From Escherichia phage ime09, in the sequence record NC_019503.1: DNA of 64,000 nt; one strand, 5' to 3'. A program made the position numbers and the translations under genes. A model generated the notes under the pieces. That model was not told the DNA's origin. It saw nothing but the letters and a program-made list of their open reading frames with translations, and searched no databases. Shown here one piece after another: positions 1 to 39,161 of the stretch (position 1 is the first letter of the stretch; each line of letters starts with the position of its first letter).

Positions 1-1631
1 ACAGTAAACCGACCAACTTTCTTCATTTGGAGATGCTGACCATATGCTTGTGGGTCATGGTCTCTATGCGAAATAACAAAAACGTTAGTATTTTTTAAAC
101 TATCTAAAATAGTTGAAATAGCTTTTACACCTTCAACATCAGTTGCTGAATCAAAAACTTCATCGAGAATTAGTGTGTTTATTTTAACACCTGAAACTTT
201 TTCAGCAATATCACGCCAAGTAAATAAAAGAGCAATATCAATTCGTGCTTTTTCACCTTGACTAAATGAAGCATAACTAAAATCTTCACGACCACGGGAT
301 TTAATTGTTTCATTAAATTCTTCATCTAATGTAAACACATAATCCGCTTCCATTATTTTAAGATAATGGTTAATTTGCTTATTAAATAATGGAATGTACT
401 TTTTAATAATAGCACCTTTAATACCAGAATCTTTGAGCATATCAGTCAAAATTCCTCTGTGGTATTTTTCCATTACTAAATTAGTTTTTGTCTTAACAAT
501 TTTATCAAGTTCTTCTTGAAGCAGTGCTATTTCATCAGCATGGTCAATAAACTCGGATGATGCTTTTTCTATAGCTGCTTTAACTTTTTTAGCTTTATCT
601 ACAGTCGTGATTAGAGATTGCTTTTTATTGCGAATATCATTCGCCAGCGTCTGCTGGGTTTTAATATTATCTCGGTATTCATCAACGAGAACTTTTAAAT
701 TATCACGATGTGTTGAAAGCTGTTCAAACGAATGCGTGCATTCAGAAACTTTATCTTTAATTTTAGAAACAACTTTATCACCGGAACTTAATTGTGACAA
801 ACAGGTTGGACATAATCCACCTTCGTGATACATATTAATGACTTTATTATACGAGTCAATTTTTGATTTAATTAAAAATGCTTCTTGACCGATTTTATTA
901 AATGCATCAGTCGGGTCTTCATCCAAAACAATATTAACTAATCTTTCATTAGCTTCTTCTATTTCCGATTTTAGCGTTCTAGCTTCTTTTGCCAAATCAT
1001 CATACATATTCTGTAGACGAGTAAGGTTGTCACCAGTTAATTTTTTCTGGCGTTCAACGTTATCATTATATATTTTAATTTGCTGGATAATACTATCTTT
1101 TTTAACATCAAGCACTTGGTTTTGTGAATTTAATTCACGTATTAGTGCTTTATTAAGCTTATCCATTTCAGCTAATGTTCCTACCTCAAGCAGGTCTTCG
1201 ACGAGTTTTCTTCTTGCAGGAGTGGATAGGCCCATAAAAGGGGTATATCCAGCCGTGCCGAGTACGACGATCTGTTTGAAACTGGCGTATGACATTCCGA
1301 TAAGCTGTTCAAATTCTGCTTGGAAATCTTTACTGCTGGCAGATTCATTAAGACGTGTACCGTTAACGGTGATTTCGAAAACGTTTGGTTTTTGTCCTCT
1401 TTTGATGTAGTACTTTTTCTCATCATATTCCATCCACAGTTCAACTAAAAGTTCTTTCTTATTTGTGCTGTTTATTAATTGACCTTTCTTTACATCACGA
1501 AATGGCTTGCCAAAAAGCCCAAATGTGATGGCTTCTAACATAGTAGACTTACCACCGCCATTTCGCCCGGTAATAAGAGTTTTTTGAACCTTATCTAGTT
1601 GAATGTCAATAGGATTTCCACCTACTGACAT
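1..1631 (-). CDS. 46: Recombination endonuclease ATPase subunit gp46 (SbcC/Rad50-like); C-terminal end cut by window edge
   Basis: Minus-strand ORF starting ATG at 1629-1631 (MSVGGNPIDIQ...), Walker A GRNGGGKST, ABC signature SQGEKARIDIALLF, Walker B LILDEVFDS; sits downstream of 47 as in T4. Confidence 0.9.
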   Translation of the reverse strand, partial: MSVGGNPIDIQLDKVQKTLITGRNGGGKSTMLEAITFGLFGKPFRDVKKGQLINSTNKKELLVELWMEYDEKKYYIKRGQKPNVFEITVNGTRLNESASSKDFQAEFEQLIGMSYASFKQIVVLGTAGYTPFMGLSTPARRKLVEDLLEVGTLAEMDKLNKALIRELNSQNQVLDVKKDSIIQQIKIYNDNVERQKKLTGDNLTRLQNMYDDLAKEARTLKSEIEEANERLVNIVLDEDPTDAFNKIGQEAFLIKSKIDSYNKVINMYHEGGLCPTCLSQLSSGDKVVSKIKDKVSECTHSFEQLSTHRDNLKVLVDEYRDNIKTQQTLANDIRNKKQSLITTVDKAKKVKAAIEKASSEFIDHADEIALLQEELDKIVKTKTNLVMEKYHRGILTDMLKDSGIKGAIIKKYIPLFNKQINHYLKIMEADYVFTLDEEFNETIKSRGREDFSYASFSQGEKARIDIALLFTWRDIAEKVSGVKINTLILDEVFDSATDVEGVKAISTILDSLKNTNVFVISHRDHDPQAYGQHLQMKKVGRFT

Positions 1632-1669
1632 TATATTTTGATACCTAACTCGGTTTAGTTTAAAATTCT

Positions 1670-1933
1670 TCACAAAAGATTCCTTTTAATGTATCTTTTA
1701 GACCATTCTATCATATCATCATAATCTAAAAAGTATTCATCAAATTCAGCCATGCAAACAACACCTTGTGCTGCCTTTGATGTGATATAAATTATTCCAA
1801 CATATCTAGAATCTTCTTCGGTGTAATCAATATTTGCTATGAATTCATCGTTAATGTCAAATGTCGAAAACTTCACAGTATGCATCCTTAATGCAAGATA
1901 CAGCCATATCTTGTAATGATTTAGGTGTGTCAT
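1670..1933 (-). CDS. Hypothetical small protein (46.x position); likely starts at an internal Met
   Basis: ORF track 87 aa; overlaps next ORF by 77 bp in a different frame, so true start probably downstream (e.g. MHTVKF...). Confidence 0.4.
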   Translation of the reverse strand: MTHLNHYKIWLYLALRMHTVKFSTFDINDEFIANIDYTEEDSRYVGIIYITSKAAQGVVCMAEFDEYFLDYDDMIEWSKRYIKRNLL

Positions 1934-2120
1934 TATCTAAAATGTTGAAGTTAAAAGATACAGCCCAGTCAGTGCAGACCGTAACCTTTTTAATACAATT
2001 ATCTTCAACCTCTAGCGGTTCAAACCAATATTCAATAATTTCTTTATGCCCAATATCATCTTTTACTTCGCATTCAAAATGCTGACTCATCATAACATTT
2101 TTAAATTCATCAAAAGTCAT
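1857..2120 (-). CDS. Hypothetical small protein (46.x position)
   Basis: ORF track 87 aa; ATG overlaps stop of gene 47 (2117-2120). Confidence 0.45.
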   Translation of the reverse strand: MTFDEFKNVMMSQHFECEVKDDIGHKEIIEYWFEPLEVEDNCIKKVTVCTDWAVSFNFNILDNDTPKSLQDMAVSCIKDAYCEVFDI

Positions 2121-3136
2121 TGTGTTGCCTCTACATATAACTGATTTGCATATTGAATAAGTGCTTCGCGATCAGAATCAGTGATGTCTGGAATTGCATT
2201 AATGTATTCTTCCATCAACGTCTGAAGAGATTGAACTTCAACTTCTTCGCTATCATCTGACTCGACAGAGTTATCAATCTTTGACACAACTCGTAATGAA
2301 TGCACAACTTTTTCTAGTTCAGATTCGAACTTCGTTAGATTTTTGTCTACTTCGGTTACTATAACACGTACTGATAGATTTGTAAAATCTTTATAGTCAA
2401 TTTTTCCCTTAAATGGATATTGAATTCGACGATGCCAGGTGGTGTTGTTTGGAATAAATTCCATTCGTTCTGTTTCTGTATCAAACATCCAGAACCCACG
2501 AGGGTCATTCTCGTCACCTGCAGTTAGTGTCCATGGTGTCCCAATATATCTGACGTTAGCAGCCTCAGAGATAGTATGGAAGTGACCAGACCACACCTCT
2601 TTATAAGTCTTAAGGAAATCAGGTTCAAGACCGTGAGATTTCATTCCTTTATAAAAATAAAATCCATTCAGTTCCCAGTGACCGACACAAAAAGAAGCAG
2701 ATGAAGTTTTGATGTGTTCAAGAATTTCACCAGTATTTTCTTCGCACATCCAAGGAATTAAATCAATCAAACATCCGTCAAAATCTACTGTAGTAGGCTT
2801 ATCATATACTTTAACATTAGGATATTTAGCCAAAAGCTCAGTAGAAGCATTTGGAGTTAAAGTATTTTTAAAGTGCATATCATGGTTTCCTACAACAGTA
2901 TGTAGGGTAATACCAGCATCATCAAGCATTTGAACTATTTCACGGGCGAACTCCATAGTTTTATGTGTGATTGCTTTTCGCACATCAAAAATATCGCCAT
3001 ATTGAATCCATATAGTAATTCCGTTTTTCTTAGAATATTCTATTGCTTGTTTAATTCCATCCAACTGAATGGATTGAACCCACTCATCATCGGCTTTAAC
3101 ACCTAAATGCCAATCACCTAAATTTAAAATTTTCAT
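2117..3136 (-). CDS. 47: Recombination nuclease subunit gp47 (SbcD/Mre11-like phosphoesterase)
   Basis: 339 aa, MKILNLGDWHLG start, phosphoesterase motifs GDWHLG / GDIFD / GNHD; length and position match T4 gp47. Confidence 0.93.
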   Translation of the reverse strand: MKILNLGDWHLGVKADDEWVQSIQLDGIKQAIEYSKKNGITIWIQYGDIFDVRKAITHKTMEFAREIVQMLDDAGITLHTVVGNHDMHFKNTLTPNASTELLAKYPNVKVYDKPTTVDFDGCLIDLIPWMCEENTGEILEHIKTSSASFCVGHWELNGFYFYKGMKSHGLEPDFLKTYKEVWSGHFHTISEAANVRYIGTPWTLTAGDENDPRGFWMFDTETERMEFIPNNTTWHRRIQYPFKGKIDYKDFTNLSVRVIVTEVDKNLTKFESELEKVVHSLRVVSKIDNSVESDDSEEVEVQSLQTLMEEYINAIPDITDSDREALIQYANQLYVEATQ

Positions 3137-3296
3137 ATGTCAAGAACCGCCATTGAAATGCAAAATAAAATTATTGAAATAAATCCATCTGGAGTACTAA
3201 AGAACCCAATCCAACATGCTCTGGTGAACAAATAAAACGCTAGAAAAAGTATCACATATCCAAGAAATATCATTATATCAAACTCCGTATAAAGCT

Positions 3297-3319
3297 AAAG
3301 GGCCGAAGCCCTTTATTTT
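3297..3319 (-). terminator. Terminator-like hairpin overlapping a-gt stop
   Basis: AAAGGGCcgaaGCCCTTT stem-loop with flanking A/T runs. Confidence 0.45.
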
Positions 3320-4515
3320 GTAATAATGTCAAACTGTTCTTTAAAGCAGAAGCTTGAATCTTGATGCTGATACAAAAATTCATAAGCTTTTTCGCGTTCA
3401 CGGTCATAAAGAGCTCGGTCAGATGACAGTTCTTTAATACGTTCAAATGTTGATTCCATGTCATTTTCATCAAACCAAACGATACCACTATCATGAGAAA
3501 TTAACGGAGTATTATCAACACGGAATTTTAAATTTTCGCCAGTAGATTTCCAAAATACTGGAATTGTTCCGCACGCACCAAGCTCGAGATGAGTATATTC
3601 TAAAGAACGTTGTAGATATTTTTTATCCAACTTACTCAACTGATAACCAAATCCGGATTTACTCATGCGTTCAAGCATTTCGCTATTTACATAACGGTCG
3701 AGAATTTGCGTTGGCAAATTAGGAGCAATTTTAATTTGGTCTACTTGATGAAGACGATAATACTCGTATGGAATTCCTTTTTCTTTAATAGGAATGAACG
3801 CTGGAGAACGTTCCAGACCTTCCATAATAGTACTTAGTCCTGCAGGTTTAAGATGTTTTTCGTGAAAATCAAACATCTGATAAAAACCTTTCCATGTAGT
3901 CGTACGACCAATCCAGCGGTTGACATTCATGTTAATTTCAGAAACATCTTTCCAGTAGGTTGATCGAACCTTCGCAATATCCATAGGAGGCTGAAAGTTG
4001 TATACGGTCGGTGCTTCTTCAATATCATCAAACAGAGAAACTGTTTCTGGATACCATTCTTTCATCAGAACTTTATTAAAATCACCATTATCAGAATGAC
4101 TAAAAATAACATCAGCTCGACGAACAGTTTCTTCTAATCCCAAATTTCGGCGCAAAGAAAGAGAAGAATGGTCATGTTGATAAACTACAACACGAACTGA
4201 AGGTTTAATGTTATCAATAATTTTTTTATAGTTATTAATAGTGTCTTCTTCTACTGAAGTAGCAGGAACTGAATTGATAATTAGAATATCACAATCATTT
4301 ACCAGCTTAAGTGTTTTATCGTATTCTTTTGCCAATAAAACCGGAATTGAAAATGATTTATAATCATGCGCGCAATTACGAGTAAATGATTTATCTTTAG
4401 CATAAACCAAAGTTACTTCATGACCATTTTTAATAAACCAATCACGCTGCTCGAGAGAAAATTTAGTTACGCCGCAACCTTCAAGACCTCGAGCCATAAA
4501 AATACATACTTTCAT
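3313..4515 (-). CDS. agt: DNA alpha-glucosyltransferase
   Basis: 400 aa, same length and position (between 47 and 55) as T4 a-gt; N-terminus MKVCIFMARGLEGCGVTKFSLEQ. Confidence 0.88.
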   Translation of the reverse strand: MKVCIFMARGLEGCGVTKFSLEQRDWFIKNGHEVTLVYAKDKSFTRNCAHDYKSFSIPVLLAKEYDKTLKLVNDCDILIINSVPATSVEEDTINNYKKIIDNIKPSVRVVVYQHDHSSLSLRRNLGLEETVRRADVIFSHSDNGDFNKVLMKEWYPETVSLFDDIEEAPTVYNFQPPMDIAKVRSTYWKDVSEINMNVNRWIGRTTTWKGFYQMFDFHEKHLKPAGLSTIMEGLERSPAFIPIKEKGIPYEYYRLHQVDQIKIAPNLPTQILDRYVNSEMLERMSKSGFGYQLSKLDKKYLQRSLEYTHLELGACGTIPVFWKSTGENLKFRVDNTPLISHDSGIVWFDENDMESTFERIKELSSDRALYDREREKAYEFLYQHQDSSFCFKEQFDIITK

Positions 4516-27893: not shown

Positions 27894-28071
27894 CTAAACG
27901 AATAGGTTCATGAATGCCATATCCTTGAACAGAAATTTCTGTCGTAGGATAAATTCCATCAATATCACCCATGGTCCACGCTTCATTAAATTGCTGTTCG
28001 CCTGAATTACTAAACCATTCTGCGAAAGCATTTAACACATCTTTAGAACCTTCAATAATTATCTTTGCCAT
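27850..28071 (-). CDS. Hypothetical small protein
   Basis: ORF track 73 aa. Confidence 0.45.
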   Translation of the reverse strand: MAKIIIEGSKDVLNAFAEWFSNSGEQQFNEAWTMGDIDGIYPTTEISVQGYGIHEPIRLVEYDLCTGEEVKYD

Positions 28072-28433
28072 TACAAGCTCTCAGTAAAGGTACGAGCGAT
28101 AACGTCGCGCTGCTGTTCCGGAGTCAGAGAGTTAAAGCGAACTGCATAACCGGATACACGGATGGTCAGCTGCGGATATTTTTCCGGATGCTTAACTGCA
28201 TCTTCCAGAGTTTCACGACGCAGAACGTTAACGTTCAGGTGTTGACCACCTTCAATTTTAACCGCAGGTTGTGGTTCAATTTCAATTTCACGGGTATGCA
28301 AACCGTAGAAAATTTCTGGGTCTACAAAAGAGTCCTCTTTAAAAGTTTTAGAGACAATAATTCGTGCTTGAATACCATCTTCAAAATAAATAGTACCTTT
28401 ATGTGTGCCTTCAAGAATTTGATATGCTTTCAT
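28071..28433 (-). CDS. Autonomous glycyl-radical cofactor (GrcA/YfiD-like), host-like C-terminal half
   Basis: 120 aa; C-terminal ~60 aa carry the RVSGYAVRF glycyl-radical motif and appear identical to recalled E. coli GrcA; 3' half of gene is visibly GC-richer than surrounding phage DNA. Confidence 0.85.
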
Positions 28434-28440
28434 ATAAACC

Positions 28441-28821
28441 TCAATTAGAAAATAAATTTATCCAAGATTGCTCTTTAATTAAAAATGGCTCAGAATCATA
28501 TGCCATTAAACTTTGGGTGATTAGTCCTTTAAAAGGTCCATCAATAAATTCCATGGTAAAATATGGAATTTTATTCATTAATCTTGCATTAGGAGCAGTA
28601 CACAAAACTCTGCATCCTTTGAATACACCTTTTTGTAATTTATATTGCTTAGGATAAAATTCGCTCAAGACGTTATTATTTGCCAAAATTTCAAAATGAT
28701 TCACCAATTTATTTTTAATAGTTTTTGGCGAAAAATAAAGATATTCGAAAAGCTGTGTGTCTGTCATCATTGCATTCCGATTACGAAAAACTGCGGACGA
28801 GTAATACCACCAATGCAACAT
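28441..28821 (-). CDS. Hypothetical protein; probable start at MMTDTQ (28770), coupled to upstream gene
   Basis: ORF track 126 aa; internal ATG overlaps upstream stop in ATGA. Confidence 0.45.
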
Positions 28822-29354
28822 TTAATATTACAGCAGTAGTGTACAGTGTCAATATGGACGCTATAAATCTTATCCATATCAGGAGATTTAACAGGCTCAT
28901 CAATTATATACAAAATTCGCGAAAGCGATAAACCTCTGAACTTGCTTCCTTTATTACCGATAAAACTACGGACAGAATCGGTAAATAAGCGGAATCGAAT
29001 ATCATCGCCAGAATAACGAGAAAATTCTTTTTTAATGTGGCCCGCAGAAATTTTAGCGTAAGCTGAAGTATTAGAAAGAACAATAACTGTTCCACCATCA
29101 TACAGCCAATTAGCAGCAAAGTTAGTCACAGCAGTTGATTTACCGGATTGTCTGCCACCATCTAATCGAAGTGTGCAATACTGCTTGAGTAAGTCTTCAA
29201 ATGGTGGGATATAATCGTTTTTACAAATTTCTTCTACTCTAGCATCAGAATGGTGTGTAAAAGCATTCATCAGGGATAGATAAGGACCAGTTAAAAATGT
29301 TCTCATTTTGTTATCTCTAAATTTGGGCCATTCCATGGCGCATGAATTTTCCAT
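28767..29354 (-). CDS. P-loop protein with Cys-rich C-terminal tail
   Basis: 195 aa, Walker A GGRQSGKST, C-terminus [12 protein letters not shown]. Confidence 0.5.
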   Translation of the reverse strand: MENSCAMEWPKFRDNKMRTFLTGPYLSLMNAFTHHSDARVEEICKNDYIPPFEDLLKQYCTLRLDGGRQSGKSTAVTNFAANWLYDGGTVIVLSNTSAYAKISAGHIKKEFSRYSGDDIRFRLFTDSVRSFIGNKGSKFRGLSLSRILYIIDEPVKSPDMDKIYSVHIDTVHYCCNIKCCIGGITRPQFFVIGMQ

Positions 29355-29459
29355 TTCTGTATTTACCCATTACCGCACTTGGGCTCGACCTTATTACAGG
29401 TTGGCGGGAATCCCTCATAGAATCATGAGGTCCAGCTTGTTCCCATATTTCTTATTTGC

Positions 29460-29933
29460 TTATTTGAATGATTTGACGTACTGAACAGAACCTTTGCTAT
29501 TCACGAAAGCGATTTTACCATTTTTGTTATACATGGTAGCAGTACGCTGATAGCCATAAGTTTGCTTACCAGATTGATAACCAACTAATGCGAAATTATC
29601 TTCGCCCATTTTATTCTGCTTAGCGCGAATGCGTTCATGGCCGTGTGCCATAAGAACCTTAGCATCACCAGTTGAAATTGATCTACGAGTTTTTTCATCT
29701 TCAACTGTATTAACAAAGTCGTCAAATGAATCAAATTTAGCATGGGATTTATTATACAGTTTTCCATCTACTGCATAATTATATCCCTGTACATCCATCT
29801 CAACTTCTGTACCATCATCCAATACAGCAGTGATTTTTTGACCTTTTTTAAATTTCAAAAGATCAGTAAAAGATTCAGCAATAATTTGAGAATTAATAGC
29901 TGCTTCAGTGATAAATTCTTGATATGTTTTCAT
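29460..29933 (-). CDS. Internal-protein-like (capsid targeting sequence) protein
   Basis: 157 aa beginning MKTYQEFITEA, the T4 internal-protein capsid-targeting motif; directly downstream of denV. Confidence 0.6.
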   Translation of the reverse strand: MKTYQEFITEAAINSQIIAESFTDLLKFKKGQKITAVLDDGTEVEMDVQGYNYAVDGKLYNKSHAKFDSFDDFVNTVEDEKTRRSISTGDAKVLMAHGHERIRAKQNKMGEDNFALVGYQSGKQTYGYQRTATMYNKNGKIAFVNSKGSVQYVKSFK

Positions 29934-29942
29934 ATGTTTCCT

Positions 29943-30359
29943 TTAAATGTAAATATTTTTGCCGTAATACTTGTACCAGTGTGGCTTCATTAAAATTTTT
30001 TCATCGAGTCGTTGTTGACTCAATTTAATAGCTGATTTGCATGGATTATAATCATTTTTCCATTCTGCTGGAATATCGCTGATGTCAGGAACTTCAGTAT
30101 CTTTTATACTAAACTCACGTTTTAAGCATTCCGTTATAATGTCTGATTGACGCTTTCGCAAAAATTCTAACTTATCGTAAAAGAACGTAACATGACCAGA
30201 GCCTAAAATAAACTCGGAAGATATTTTAAAATCTTTAACCCGCTTACCATTTGCCACATGTTTACGAACTATACCAAAAACACGCGGCAATTCACGATAC
30301 TCAGCCATAAGATGTTGGTCGGTCAGTTCAGAAACAAGTGTTAAATTGATGCGAGTCAT
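29943..30359 (-). CDS. denV: Pyrimidine-dimer DNA glycosylase / endonuclease V
   Basis: 138 aa from [12 protein letters not shown] (ORF track extends 4 codons further); near-identical to recalled T4 endo V. Confidence 0.93.
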
Positions 30360-30382
30360 AATTTCCTCCAAGTAGTTGATGA

Positions 30383-30417
30383 ATGTATAGTATCAAAGTC
30401 CTTGGAGGAAGTAAACA

Positions 30418-30418
<1 letters not shown>
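30383..30418 (-). promoter_or_regulatory. T4-type early promoter (minus strand) for denV
   Basis: plus-strand tatagtatc (30386-30394) and gtaaac (30411-30416). Confidence 0.5.
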
Positions 30419-31220
<802 letters not shown>

Positions 31221-31676
31221 TTAAAAGAGGCTGTTCATTATTCGGTAAAGTGAAGGACCCATCACATATTGCCACTGAGTACGAGGAATAAGAGCAAAAG
31301 CATCCATCTCTGGAATCATAACACCATCTTTATTTTCAAAATAAGACTCACAACGGCAATTTCTGAACATCTCATGCTCTACTGGAATCGTATAATAAAA
31401 TAACTGTAAGTCTTTATTACTAGAATATTTAAATACACCTAGGTCTTCTAGAAGGTCTGGATTATAATTGCTAAAGCCAGTCTCTTCTAAGCATTCTCTT
31501 CGTGCTGCATCTAGTGCGCTTAAATCAGAACTTTCTACACGCCCCTTTGGAATATCCCAGCGGTGTGCCATCATTCCGGGCTTACGAGAACCAGTAACTC
31601 GTCCCATAAATAAATCTTTATCTTCTGTCATAAAGATAATACCAGCTGATAGTGTTTTCATTTTAATTTCCTGCAT
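31221..31676 (-). CDS. nudE: Nudix hydrolase
   Basis: 151 aa, Nudix box GRVESSDLSALDAARRECLEETGF. Confidence 0.8.
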   Translation of the reverse strand: MQEIKMKTLSAGIIFMTEDKDLFMGRVTGSRKPGMMAHRWDIPKGRVESSDLSALDAARRECLEETGFSNYNPDLLEDLGVFKYSSNKDLQLFYYTIPVEHEMFRNCRCESYFENKDGVMIPEMDAFALIPRTQWQYVMGPSLYRIMNSLF

Positions 31677-32146
31677 TCAGTGATAAAGTTATTTAAATTT
31701 TGAGTATATTTCTTTTCATCAAAAATCTTTTGCTGCCTACGTAACCGCCATGGCATTTCAATGAACATGCACCATATTCCTGATAGTACTGCTGCTGTAA
31801 AAATATTAACAAGTATAATTAAAAGAATCCAATCTTCCGTTCTGCCTACTGGACTTTCTCCAAAGAAGCAAAATACAAATGATGTCACAGGAAAACTAAT
31901 AATATACCACAGAATAACCTTCTTATCTGTAAACCAATCAGCGTTCGTTAACTTAGCACGACCATTTTGAATACACACGAATTTATCATCTGTTACAGTA
32001 GATGGCTTAACTGCTTGATATCCCATTCTAAACTCCCTAATTAATCGTTTCTTTGTATCTTCAGAACAACCACTCCAATCAACTCTATCGACTGAAATGC
32101 CATCGTCCCCATCGTCTAAATCATACCAGCGAGTTTTTAAAATCAT
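31658..32146 (-). CDS. Small two-TM membrane protein (tandem paralog 1)
   Basis: 162 aa, two hydrophobic helices, C-terminal ...FITECRKLK. Confidence 0.5.
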   Translation of the reverse strand: MILKTRWYDLDDGDDGISVDRVDWSGCSEDTKKRLIREFRMGYQAVKPSTVTDDKFVCIQNGRAKLTNADWFTDKKVILWYIISFPVTSFVFCFFGESPVGRTEDWILLIILVNIFTAAVLSGIWCMFIEMPWRLRRQQKIFDEKKYTQNLNNFITECRKLK

Positions 32147-35124: not shown

Positions 35125-35688
35125 TTATTTATCTAGTTTAGTTATTATAGCTTCTGCGGCAGCTTTTAGCTTAGATGCGGTGTTAATACGATTTTTAATT
35201 TCAGTATAAGCGTCGCCAAGAACATCAAGGCTATCAGAATAAACACTTACACTATTGCGTTCGCTATTTGAAATAGAACCTTTAGTTTTACGATCAAAAT
35301 CGGTGTACACGTCTTGAAGATCACGGGCTGCCTTCTTTGCATCATCCAATGCATCAAGAGCTTTATTCAAAGCATTAACGTATTTTTTAGTGTCGAACAT
35401 ATTCTTAGAAATTTTAACAGGTGCGCGTTCAGGAGTAGCTAACACAGATTTAGGAACCTGAGCGCCAGATGCCAATTTCTTAGAAATTTTGAAAAATGCT
35501 TTGTTGAATTTATTTTCTTGACTCATTGTAAAAGAACTATTATCGATGTTGTACATTTCAATAGCTTTAGCTTTCCACTTAAGAAAATCGCCGCGGTCTT
35601 TTGGGTCCAAGTGGAAAAATACTTTAGTAAGATCTGCTTCAGATGGTAATTTTGCTGCTTCGGTTAAAAATTCGGCATAGGTTTTCAT
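35125..35688 (-). CDS. Internal-protein-like (capsid targeting sequence) protein
   Basis: 187 aa beginning MKTYAEFLTEA; own terminator. Confidence 0.6.
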   Translation of the reverse strand: MKTYAEFLTEAAKLPSEADLTKVFFHLDPKDRGDFLKWKAKAIEMYNIDNSSFTMSQENKFNKAFFKISKKLASGAQVPKSVLATPERAPVKISKNMFDTKKYVNALNKALDALDDAKKAARDLQDVYTDFDRKTKGSISNSERNSVSVYSDSLDVLGDAYTEIKNRINTASKLKAAAEAIITKLDK

Positions 35689-35813: not shown

Positions 35814-36287
35814 TTATTTGATTTGTTTAGCAGACCAAATGCGGTCTTTAATAATTTTTTGGATGTCTTCAACATACTCAAGAGAGTGAACATGTGGGTT
35901 ATCTTTGAAACTATAAGCACGGGCTAACTTTTGGCCTTCGGTTTTGATTACTAAAAGCTCTTTAAGGATAGCTTCATATTTAGCGATAATTCCTTTAACG
36001 ATATTTTTTTCTTGTGCAGCTTTAGGATCTGCTTTAGGAGCAGGTTTACCCGAAGCCTTTGCAAAAGCAGCGCCAGTAGCAACTAAACTTTTCCAGGCCA
36101 TACTAACTGCATTTCCCGTAAATCCTTCTGCTTTCATGTCGCGAGCAAATTGGAATCGTGATTCGTCAGAAGCATCTTTATAGGAATATTTACCCGCTGC
36201 AATGGCTGCTTTTGCGACAGCTTGAATTTCGGTGCTAGATGCTTCATTTAACACCGCTTCATTTAAAAATTGAGCATATGATTTCAT
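35814..36287 (-). CDS. Internal-protein-like (capsid targeting sequence) protein
   Basis: 157 aa beginning MKSYAQFLNEA; late-promoter motif ~40 nt upstream; own terminator. Confidence 0.6.
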   Translation of the reverse strand: MKSYAQFLNEAVLNEASSTEIQAVAKAAIAAGKYSYKDASDESRFQFARDMKAEGFTGNAVSMAWKSLVATGAAFAKASGKPAPKADPKAAQEKNIVKGIIAKYEAILKELLVIKTEGQKLARAYSFKDNPHVHSLEYVEDIQKIIKDRIWSAKQIK

Positions 36288-38857: not shown

Positions 38858-38910
38858 GGTAATAGTATCACAACTAAAACCCTATGTAAACAACTTTGTG
38901 AAATTATTTT
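38858..38910 (-). promoter_or_regulatory. T4-type early promoter (minus strand)
   Basis: plus-strand aatagtatc (38861-38869), tgtaaac (38885-38891), UP cassette identical to the one at 39215-39240. Confidence 0.55.
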
Positions 38911-39161
38911 AAATCTTCTAATCGTTTCTTCATCTTAGAACCATTTTTAGCAATTTCTCCTGCATCGGAGCATAACGCTAAAAGTGCTTTAACTTTAGTT
39001 TGGTCTCCTTTAAAAGACGAAGGATCGACTGCAGCAGCAAGTTCTTTAATACGAGAGAAAAGACGCTCAGCTTCAGCTAAAGCCATTCCAAGCTTTACTT
39101 CCATACCGTGAGAAGATTCAGTGATAGTAGTTTTTGTAGCAAACTCTTTGAAAGTTTTCAT
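38904..39161 (-). CDS. Internal-protein-like small protein (ipI-position), paralog of 30418..30699
   Basis: 85 aa beginning MKTFKEFATK (CTS-like); located just downstream of 57B as ipI is in T4. Confidence 0.65.
   Translation of the reverse strand: MKTFKEFATKTTITESSHGMEVKLGMALAEAERLFSRIKELAAAVDPSSFKGDQTKVKALLALCSDAGEIAKNGSKMKKRLEDLK

Follow-up and report, generated by a model that had tools for sequence, protein, structure and literature searches.

The 157-residue open reading frame (ORF) that lies directly downstream of denV in Escherichia phage ime09 is, by its sequence, the known internal head protein Ip4 (IpIV), an ordinary gene. Positions below refer to the window, the whole 64,000-nucleotide stretch of record NC_019503.1 that was analysed. 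The gene was already known and named, since it falls in established Pfam and PHROG families and has named copies in T2, RB14, AR1 and K3; the ime09 copy is unusual only in its upstream neighbour, the denV allele. The overall explanation that we favour, with a probability of about 0.78, is that Ip4 is an internal protein (IP) that would be packaged, trimmed and injected, and that would have a counter-defence role.

Identity of the ORF and its leader

The ip4 coding sequence occupies 29460..29933 on the minus strand, running from an ATG start to a TAA stop at 29460-29462, and encodes 157 aa including the propeptide; the protein opens MKTYQEFITEAAINSQ. The first-pass annotation of this DNA had placed a 157-aa ORF just downstream of denV with exactly these coordinates, leaving the strand unstated, and its placement is borne out. 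The 138-aa ORF upstream is denV, matching both Pfam Pyr_excise and the endonuclease V PHROG, and the junction between the two genes reads TAA-aggaaacat-ATG, such that the ip4 ATG lies 9 nt past the denV stop.

The ip4 product matches Pfam DUF7412 (PF24183) over residues 1-157 of the 158-position model (2.6e-95; 317.3 bits, cut-off 27) and PHROG 3155, 'internal virion protein' (1.9e-101). Its identity is 98.7% to T2 ipIV and RB14 Ip4 and 97% to Ip4 of K3 (UniProt Q38388), and the named copies (K3, T2, RB14, RB32, AR1 and Kha5h) are 97-100% identical across the full 157 aa. In Kha5h, the counterpart is annotated as 'ipIV, internal virion protein; similar to RB51, RB70, RB32, RB14 and T2L IpIV'. 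Going by the old accession Q38388, the name Ip4 probably originates with Repoila et al. 1994.

By tblastn, ip4 is present in 469 phage records, in 467 of them near full length and intact. Identity to the ime09 gene product reaches 95% or more in approximately 305 of these records, which come from phages of Escherichia, Shigella, Yersinia and Citrobacter, and is 60-80% in approximately 160, from Klebsiella, Raoultella, Salmonella and Serratia phages. A 1.5-kb query spanning the locus (window 29300-30800) is 99% identical to Tequatrovirus genomes, for example vB_Eco_Geo, slur07 and Kha5h. An HMM search of 1.84 billion cluster representatives returned 7 matches only, all of them phage-like; three are metagenomic proteins that are 35-39% identical to the Ip4 proteins of isolated phages. 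These metagenomic relatives keep an L-N-E/S leader (here and below, a slash marks the predicted cleavage point), because their starts read MNFEQFLNES or MNFKDFLNES (MNFxxFLNES) or contain ...SLNES. Two exceptional copies were also seen: Ip4 of Klebsiella phage vB_Kpn_AM_K5 is disrupted by an insertion and has a diverged C-terminus (184 aa), and one cluster representative of the family is a 39-aa truncation after the leader.

Ip4 is a conserved protein-coding gene under purifying selection. The dN/dS ratio is 0.025 relative to T2 and 0.08-0.14 relative to the Salmonella and Klebsiella phage orthologues; relative to Serratia phage SP1, synonymous sites are saturated. Between genera, Ip4 retains 68-71% identity versus 65-70% for the e lysozyme. 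Forty-nine columns are invariant among 15 cluster representatives and are concentrated in residues 46-67, 89-123 and 127-133; the most conserved segments, 46-67 and 107-133, are loops rich in Gly, Tyr, Asn and His. From the alignment of the 15 family sequences, AlphaFold2 gave a model with a pLDDT of 76 and a pTM of 0.71; pLDDT falls below 50 at 106-111 and 123-128, within the conserved loops. Searched with this model, Foldseek returned nothing below E = 0.1 from the PDB and only Ip4 of K3 from BFVD, and neither a profile search of PDB sequences nor PADLOC gave a match to Ip4. As modelled, the Ip4 fold has no detectable relatives and is an orphan.

The N-terminus of Ip4 is a near-exact copy of the capsid-targeting sequence (CTS) of T4 internal proteins, as the first-pass annotation had noticed: 10 of the 11 residues of MKTYQEFITEAA agree with MKTYQEFIAEA of T4 IPIII and IPII. 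The CTS itself, MKTYQEFITE (residues 1-10; 29904..29933, minus strand), departs from MKTYQEFIAE of IPIII and IPII only by A9T and shares with it the targeting residues Y4 and F7. In IPIII, the first 10 residues are enough for entry into the prohead core, with residues 4 and 7 serving in targeting and residues 8 and 10 in processing; the gp21 protease cuts after L/I-x-E, and IP propeptides are 10-19 residues long (PMC9026906). Since Ip4 has Y4, F7, I8 and E10, its I-T-E/A is a canonical gp21 site, and cleavage is predicted at I8-T9-E10/A11. The linker that follows (29874..29903, minus strand) contains a second candidate gp21 site in the family alignment, I18-A19-E20/S21, where [ILM]-x-E-[SA] is kept in the 13 family members that cover the position. 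These are the only two L/I-x-E sites in Ip4, and from its conservation E20/S21 is probably also used by gp21; a cut after E20 recalls T4 IPI, in which the sole I-T-E site ends at residue 19. The computed mature protein is 137-147 aa long with a pI of 9.1-9.3 and 22 Lys+Arg (137 aa and pI 9.3 if cut after E20). M1, K2, F7 and E10 are each at least 90% conserved in the family alignment.

For the pattern MK[TS][YF]x[ED]F[ILM]xE, the expected count over all six translated frames of the window is 6e-5, and none of 200 shuffles contained it. The real sequence has three occurrences, all on the same strand and each coinciding with the start codon of an ORF of 93 aa or longer, and for this reason we regard the CTS as real rather than a product of chance. 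That the CTS-like start is fortuitous, or that the ORF is not expressed or not packaged, could draw on the lack of a promoter dedicated to ip4 in ime09 and on the fact that we retrieved no direct proteomic evidence, but such a reading is exceedingly improbable given how rarely the motif is expected in the window, an ORF intact in 467 of 469 phage records with dN/dS far below 1, a strong Shine-Dalgarno sequence, and a leader that is kept even in relatives of 35% identity. By every sequence criterion, Ip4 is a CTS-bearing T-even internal protein.

The likeness to IPIII and IPII is largely one of the leader. The first-pass annotation had proposed that the ORF might be a relocated IPIII-like gene, and this is refuted: BLASTP against T4 IPIII aligns residues 1-13 alone, and IPIII orthologues coexist with ip4. 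In phage ECO07P2, an orthologue 91% identical to T4 IPIII adjoins an Ip4 that is 98.7% identical to that of ime09, and in Klebsiella phage KP182, e is followed by ip4 and then by an IPIII 89% identical to that of T4. Against T4 IPII, BLASTP gives 31% identity, yet 10 of the 24 identities in 77 columns fall in the first 11 residues, so that the leader accounts for the match. A relocated or diverged copy of IPIII or IPII would account for the near-identical CTS, for a 25-nt translation-initiation region identical to that of T4 ipII, and for a length of 157 aa that falls between those of IPII and IPIII; nevertheless, with no significant similarity to IPIII past the leader, a separate Pfam/PHROG family, and true IPIII orthologues beside Ip4 in ECO07P2 and KP182, we consider this origin barely credible. 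No similarity of mature Ip4 to Ip1, Ip2 or Ip3 was found. The other possibility raised by the first-pass annotation, a distinct injected protein, was right in kind but not in its novelty, the gene being ip4/ipIV of T2, RB14, AR1, Kha5h and K3. It had further held that full-length orthology to T4 IPIII with conserved synteny would make the gene ordinary; orthology and synteny are indeed what we found, although the orthologue is Ip4 and not IPIII.

Comparison with the three characterized T4 proteins is instructive nonetheless. T4 IPIII (193 aa; inhibits the two-gene GmrSD of ECOR17) shares with Ip4 a CTS identical at 9 of 10 positions, a gp21 site, the same locus and a basic character, and the packaging and injection route is presumably common to both; the two differ in that their mature parts are without similarity, they belong to different families, and their genes coexist in some phages. 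T4 IPII (100 aa; inhibits the GmrSD of ECOR21) has the same CTS, and the 25 nt upstream and first 23 coding nt of its gene are identical to those of ip4, whereas the mature sequences are unrelated. T4 IPI/IPI* (95 aa processed to 76 aa; inhibits the GmrSD of CT596) is a small, basic, injected protein of orphan fold; Ip4 is likewise small, basic and of orphan fold, and would likewise be injected. Cleavage of IPI follows E19, and the conserved I-A-E of Ip4 ends at residue 20, such that, with a cut there, the propeptides of both would end in I-x-E some 19-20 residues in.

The locus between e and vs.8

At the ip4 loci inspected, the gene lies between e, with or without denV, and either vs.8 or other IP genes, and placement in the e-to-vs.8 interval is found in Tequatrovirus, Gelderlandvirus, Jiaodavirus and Muldoonvirus. 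T4 has the order e, ipIII, ipII, denV, vs.8, with no ip4. The order is e, ip4, vs.8 in T2 and RB14; e, denV, ip4, vs.8 in HY01; and e, IP93 (a 93-aa IP), denV, ip4, vs.8 in the ime09 window and Kha5h. ECO07P2 has e, IP93, an ORF, ipIII, ip4 and a vs.8-like ORF; Salmonella phage STP4-a has e, an ORF, denV, ip4 and two further IP genes; KP182 has e, ip4, ipIII; and Serratia phage SP1 has e, ip4. Judging by these gene orders, the locus is shuffled by cassettes, and ip4 is a stable occupant of its vs.8-proximal end. Ip4 of T2 and RB14 and that of ime09 are alike in protein, leader and position at the vs.8 side of the locus. In T2 and RB14, however, ip4 directly follows e and has its own early promoter and stem-loop, whereas in ime09 the block of IP93 and denV stands between e and ip4, and ip4 is joined to the 3' end of denV by a shared leader block. 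The T2 locus (1442-3650) consists of e, ipIV and a shortened vs.8; because it holds neither denV nor another IP, T2 would be the simplest background for an ip4 knockout.

Alignment with T4 and RB14 delimits the shared IP leader block to approximately 50 nt (AAAAATATTTACATTTAAAGGAAACAT and ATGAAAACATATCAAGAATTTAT; 29911..29960, minus strand), which take in the stop and final five codons of denV, the Shine-Dalgarno sequence and CTS codons. T4 has an identical block that runs up to and into ipII, and near-identical ones precede T4 ipIII and RB14 ip4; the block is likely to be a substrate for recombination in cassette shuffling. At the other end, in the non-coding spacer between ip4 and vs.8 (29355..29459, minus strand), the sequence from GGGAACAA (29444; ...TTCCC) on is the same as what comes immediately after the denV stop in T4, and GGGAACAA therefore marks the 3' boundary of the ip4 cassette. 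Promoter-early stem-loop cassettes undergoing recombination-driven exchange have been described in T4-type phages (PMC2839356), and the ip4 junctions, as aligned, fit such an exchange. T4 ipII and ipIII and RB14 ip4 each have an early-type promoter with a AATTGTGA...TCACAATT inverted repeat.

Several features of these junctions were seen in passing. The denV gene of ime09 (29943-30371, minus strand) is 77% identical to that of T4, against 94-98% for the flanking e, nudE, vs.6, vs.7 and vs.8, a sequence difference that indicates a mosaic replacement of the denV allele. Its last five codons and stop, AAAAATATTTACATTTAA (K-N-I-Y-I-stop), fall within the shared IP leader block, and T4 ipII is preceded by the same block without denV before it. 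Between ip4 and the IPIII orthologue of KP182 (locus positions 3033-3065) is a 10-codon mini-ORF, ATGACACGTATTAACTTAAAG... (MTRINLKDIK), that reproduces the first six denV codons (MTRINL) and is apparently what remains of a denV deleted at a junction of IP cassettes.

Just after ip4, a nested inverted repeat, GGGAA...CCTCAT-gattct-ATGAGG...TTCCC (29406-29444, minus strand), is present and is also found in T4 and RB14. Shuffled sequence folds just as well as the 105-nt spacer that holds the repeat (z = -0.18), no T-run follows, and on account of that stability we dropped the hairpin as a structured RNA or terminator. Rfam over 28000-32000 gave only a sub-threshold snoRNA chance match and none in the spacer; a terminator scan found no terminator-like site on the minus strand of the spacer, and generic sigma-70 and terminator scans were at background. 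We also considered the element as a degenerate direct repeat of the IP leader, which would have explained the T4 arrangement lacking ip4; about half the positions agree by eye, and we make no claim for it.

On the vs.8 side, the 30 N-terminal residues annotated for T4 vs.8 (MRDSRQPVIRS...; T4 locus 3800-3913) correspond to the conserved spacer after denV. In ime09, that frame makes up a 33-aa ORF of its own (29317-29418, minus strand), which a length difference of 8 nt puts out of frame with vs.8. On this alignment, the start of T4 vs.8 may be mis-annotated, the conserved protein starting at MRTFLTGPY. Further along, the vs.6 orthologue (28071-28433, minus strand) has a C-terminal glycyl-radical domain (Pfam Gly_radical, 2.9e-18), a phage GrcA-like spare part already known in T4.

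The whole window contains five CTS-bearing ORFs, counting ip4, IP93 and ORFs of 85, 187 and 157 aa, and therefore encodes five CTS proteins. IP93 (30418-30699, minus strand) is, as the first-pass annotation stated, the one small IP-like gene between denV and e. It is a 48%-identical paralogue of the 85-aa CTS protein at the ipI locus and is neither IPII nor IPIII; relatives approximately 47% identical to it are annotated 'ip5' in another phage. The gene for the 85-aa protein (38904-39161, minus strand), which has an IPI-type leader (MKTFKEFATKTTITE/SS), lies beyond the tRNA cluster at about the position of T4 ipI. The 187-aa ORF (MKTYAEFLTEAA; 35125-35688, minus strand) and the second 157-aa ORF (MKSYAQFLNEAV; 35814-36287, minus strand) form a tandem pair in the interval from the e.x genes to the tRNA cluster and both match phrog_2280, labelled 'unknown function'; by sequence they look like unannotated paralogous internal proteins.

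Expression, and proposed packaging and injection

By pattern scan, ip4 has no promoter of its own in ime09. An early-type promoter-like site, GTTTAC ... GATACTATAC (30385..30416, minus strand), lies upstream of denV, and T4 has the same early-type element at the same place before its own denV; from this consensus match only, the site is a likely source of early denV-ip4 transcripts. Upstream of e are two tandem T4 late promoters, TATAAATA (31218 and 31205, within 31198..31218, minus strand). No TATAAATA lies between e and ip4, the tandem pair being the sole late promoters upstream of ip4 in the transcription unit, and late Ip4 synthesis would consequently need read-through across e, IP93, denV and ip4. 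The lack of its own late promoter counts against our preferred explanation. A strong Shine-Dalgarno sequence, AAGGAAA, is present at the denV-ip4 junction, and Ip4 is probably made from read-through transcripts that are translated from this site.

In the pathway that we propose, the Ip4 precursor would be made mainly from read-through transcripts initiated at the early promoter before denV and at the late promoters before e. The CTS would then dock the precursor into the gp22 scaffolding core of the prohead, and gp21 would remove the leader after E10 and probably also after E20. The basic mature protein, of approximately 15.5 kDa, would remain in the head with the DNA and be ejected with it into the cell, where it would act before any phage gene expression. 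Each step from docking onward is inferred from analogy with the characterized internal proteins. The window ends in gene 17 and does not include the scaffold and protease genes; Kha5h, which is 98.9% identical over the 1.5-kb locus query, encodes gp20, gp67, gp68, gp21, gp22 and gp23. The searchable literature yielded nothing on Ip4, IpIV or DUF7412 by name and no virion proteomics or injection data for Ip4, a paper on a Yersinia Tequatrovirus being without virion proteomics. Taken as a pathway of packaging, processing and injection, this part of our explanation is very probable, and we hold it more firmly than the explanation as a whole.

Possible role in the host cell

T4 Ip1, Ip2 and Ip3 each inhibit one distinct GmrSD-type restriction enzyme (PMC12373910), and IPIII is active in the host cytoplasm without its CTS (PMC9391042). 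Because of these two findings, an anti-defence role is the best guess for Ip4. More specifically, Ip4 could act as a stoichiometric inhibitor against a first-response defence of the host, with a modification-dependent (type IV) nuclease as the probable target; by analogy with Ip1-Ip3, we put this proposal forward tentatively and at somewhat less than even odds.

A simple extension of GmrSD inhibition to Ip4 meets three difficulties. Firstly, in the screen of Silas et al. 2025 (PMC12373910; Supplementary Fig. 9), 'ip4-10' showed no reproducible inhibition when assayed against GmrSD variants. We infer from the name only that the 'ip4' of that screen is the Ip4 family; the target of Ip4 would then not be among the GmrSD variants screened so far. 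Secondly, T2 is restricted by GmrSD-ECOR17 and GmrSD-ECOR21 (PMC12373910) even though it carries ipIV: in T2, Ip4 is present while Ip3 and Ip2 are absent, and the two systems that restrict it are the Ip3 target (GmrSD-ECOR17) and the Ip2 target (GmrSD-ECOR21). Thirdly, the slow, lysozyme-like divergence of Ip4 (68-71% versus 65-70% for e) is unlike the signature of an arms-race inhibitor. The negative screen, the restriction of T2 and the slow evolution together count against that extension.

It is possible, though with a lower probability than an inhibitor of a first-response defence, that Ip4 is a slow-evolving internal protein that acts, by binding or by catalysis, on a conserved host factor or on a widespread defence other than GmrSD. 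The basis for this is an identity of 61-71% and a dN/dS of approximately 0.1 from Escherichia phages to those of Klebsiella, Salmonella and Serratia, together with an orphan fold and invariant loops rich in His, Asp and Tyr. On this reading, Ip4 would not be another strain-specific GmrSD inhibitor.

The same strong purifying selection, and divergence in step with the e lysozyme across four genera, would also suit a protein that is mainly structural or DNA-associated, helping to assemble the core, neutralise charge or eject DNA and having no specific target in the host. Mature Ip4 is basic (pI 9.1-9.3, 22 Lys+Arg), IP lysines contact DNA phosphates (PMC9026906; PMC3012670), IPIII mutants have slower head assembly and a smaller burst (PMC9026906), and no GmrSD target was found for 'ip4'. 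However, T4 and many other Tequatrovirus genomes without ip4 assemble normally, and the T4 IP genes are dispensable on laboratory hosts (PMC9026906). All three internal proteins of known function are, moreover, anti-restriction proteins, and the conserved loops at 46-67 and 107-133 look like a specific binding surface, not generic basic patches. We therefore regard a mainly structural role as unlikely.

Less likely again is an enzyme or effector role, in which injected Ip4 would modify a conserved component of the host instead of serving as a stoichiometric inhibitor. There is a precedent in Alt, which is packaged and ejected (PMC9026906) and ADP-ribosylates RNA polymerase; the 49 columns that are invariant in 15 sequences include H64, H99, D47, D79, D90, E111 and D112 in conserved loops, and conservation across Escherichia, Klebsiella, Salmonella and Serratia phages suggests a conserved target. 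Yet Ip4 matches no enzyme family either by sequence (Pfam, PDB profile, PADLOC) or by fold, the mature protein is small at 137-147 aa, and model confidence is low in the very loops that are conserved (pLDDT falls below 50 at 106-111 and 123-128).

As annotation, the value of this work is small, given that ip4 already has a name, Pfam and PHROG families, and a presence in 469 sequenced phages. As a lead, Ip4 is an internal protein that occurs in the classical phage T2, that is conserved over phages of several host genera, and for which one published screen returned no target. The target of Ip4, if found, would add a new defence and counter-defence pair, or a new kind of injected effector.
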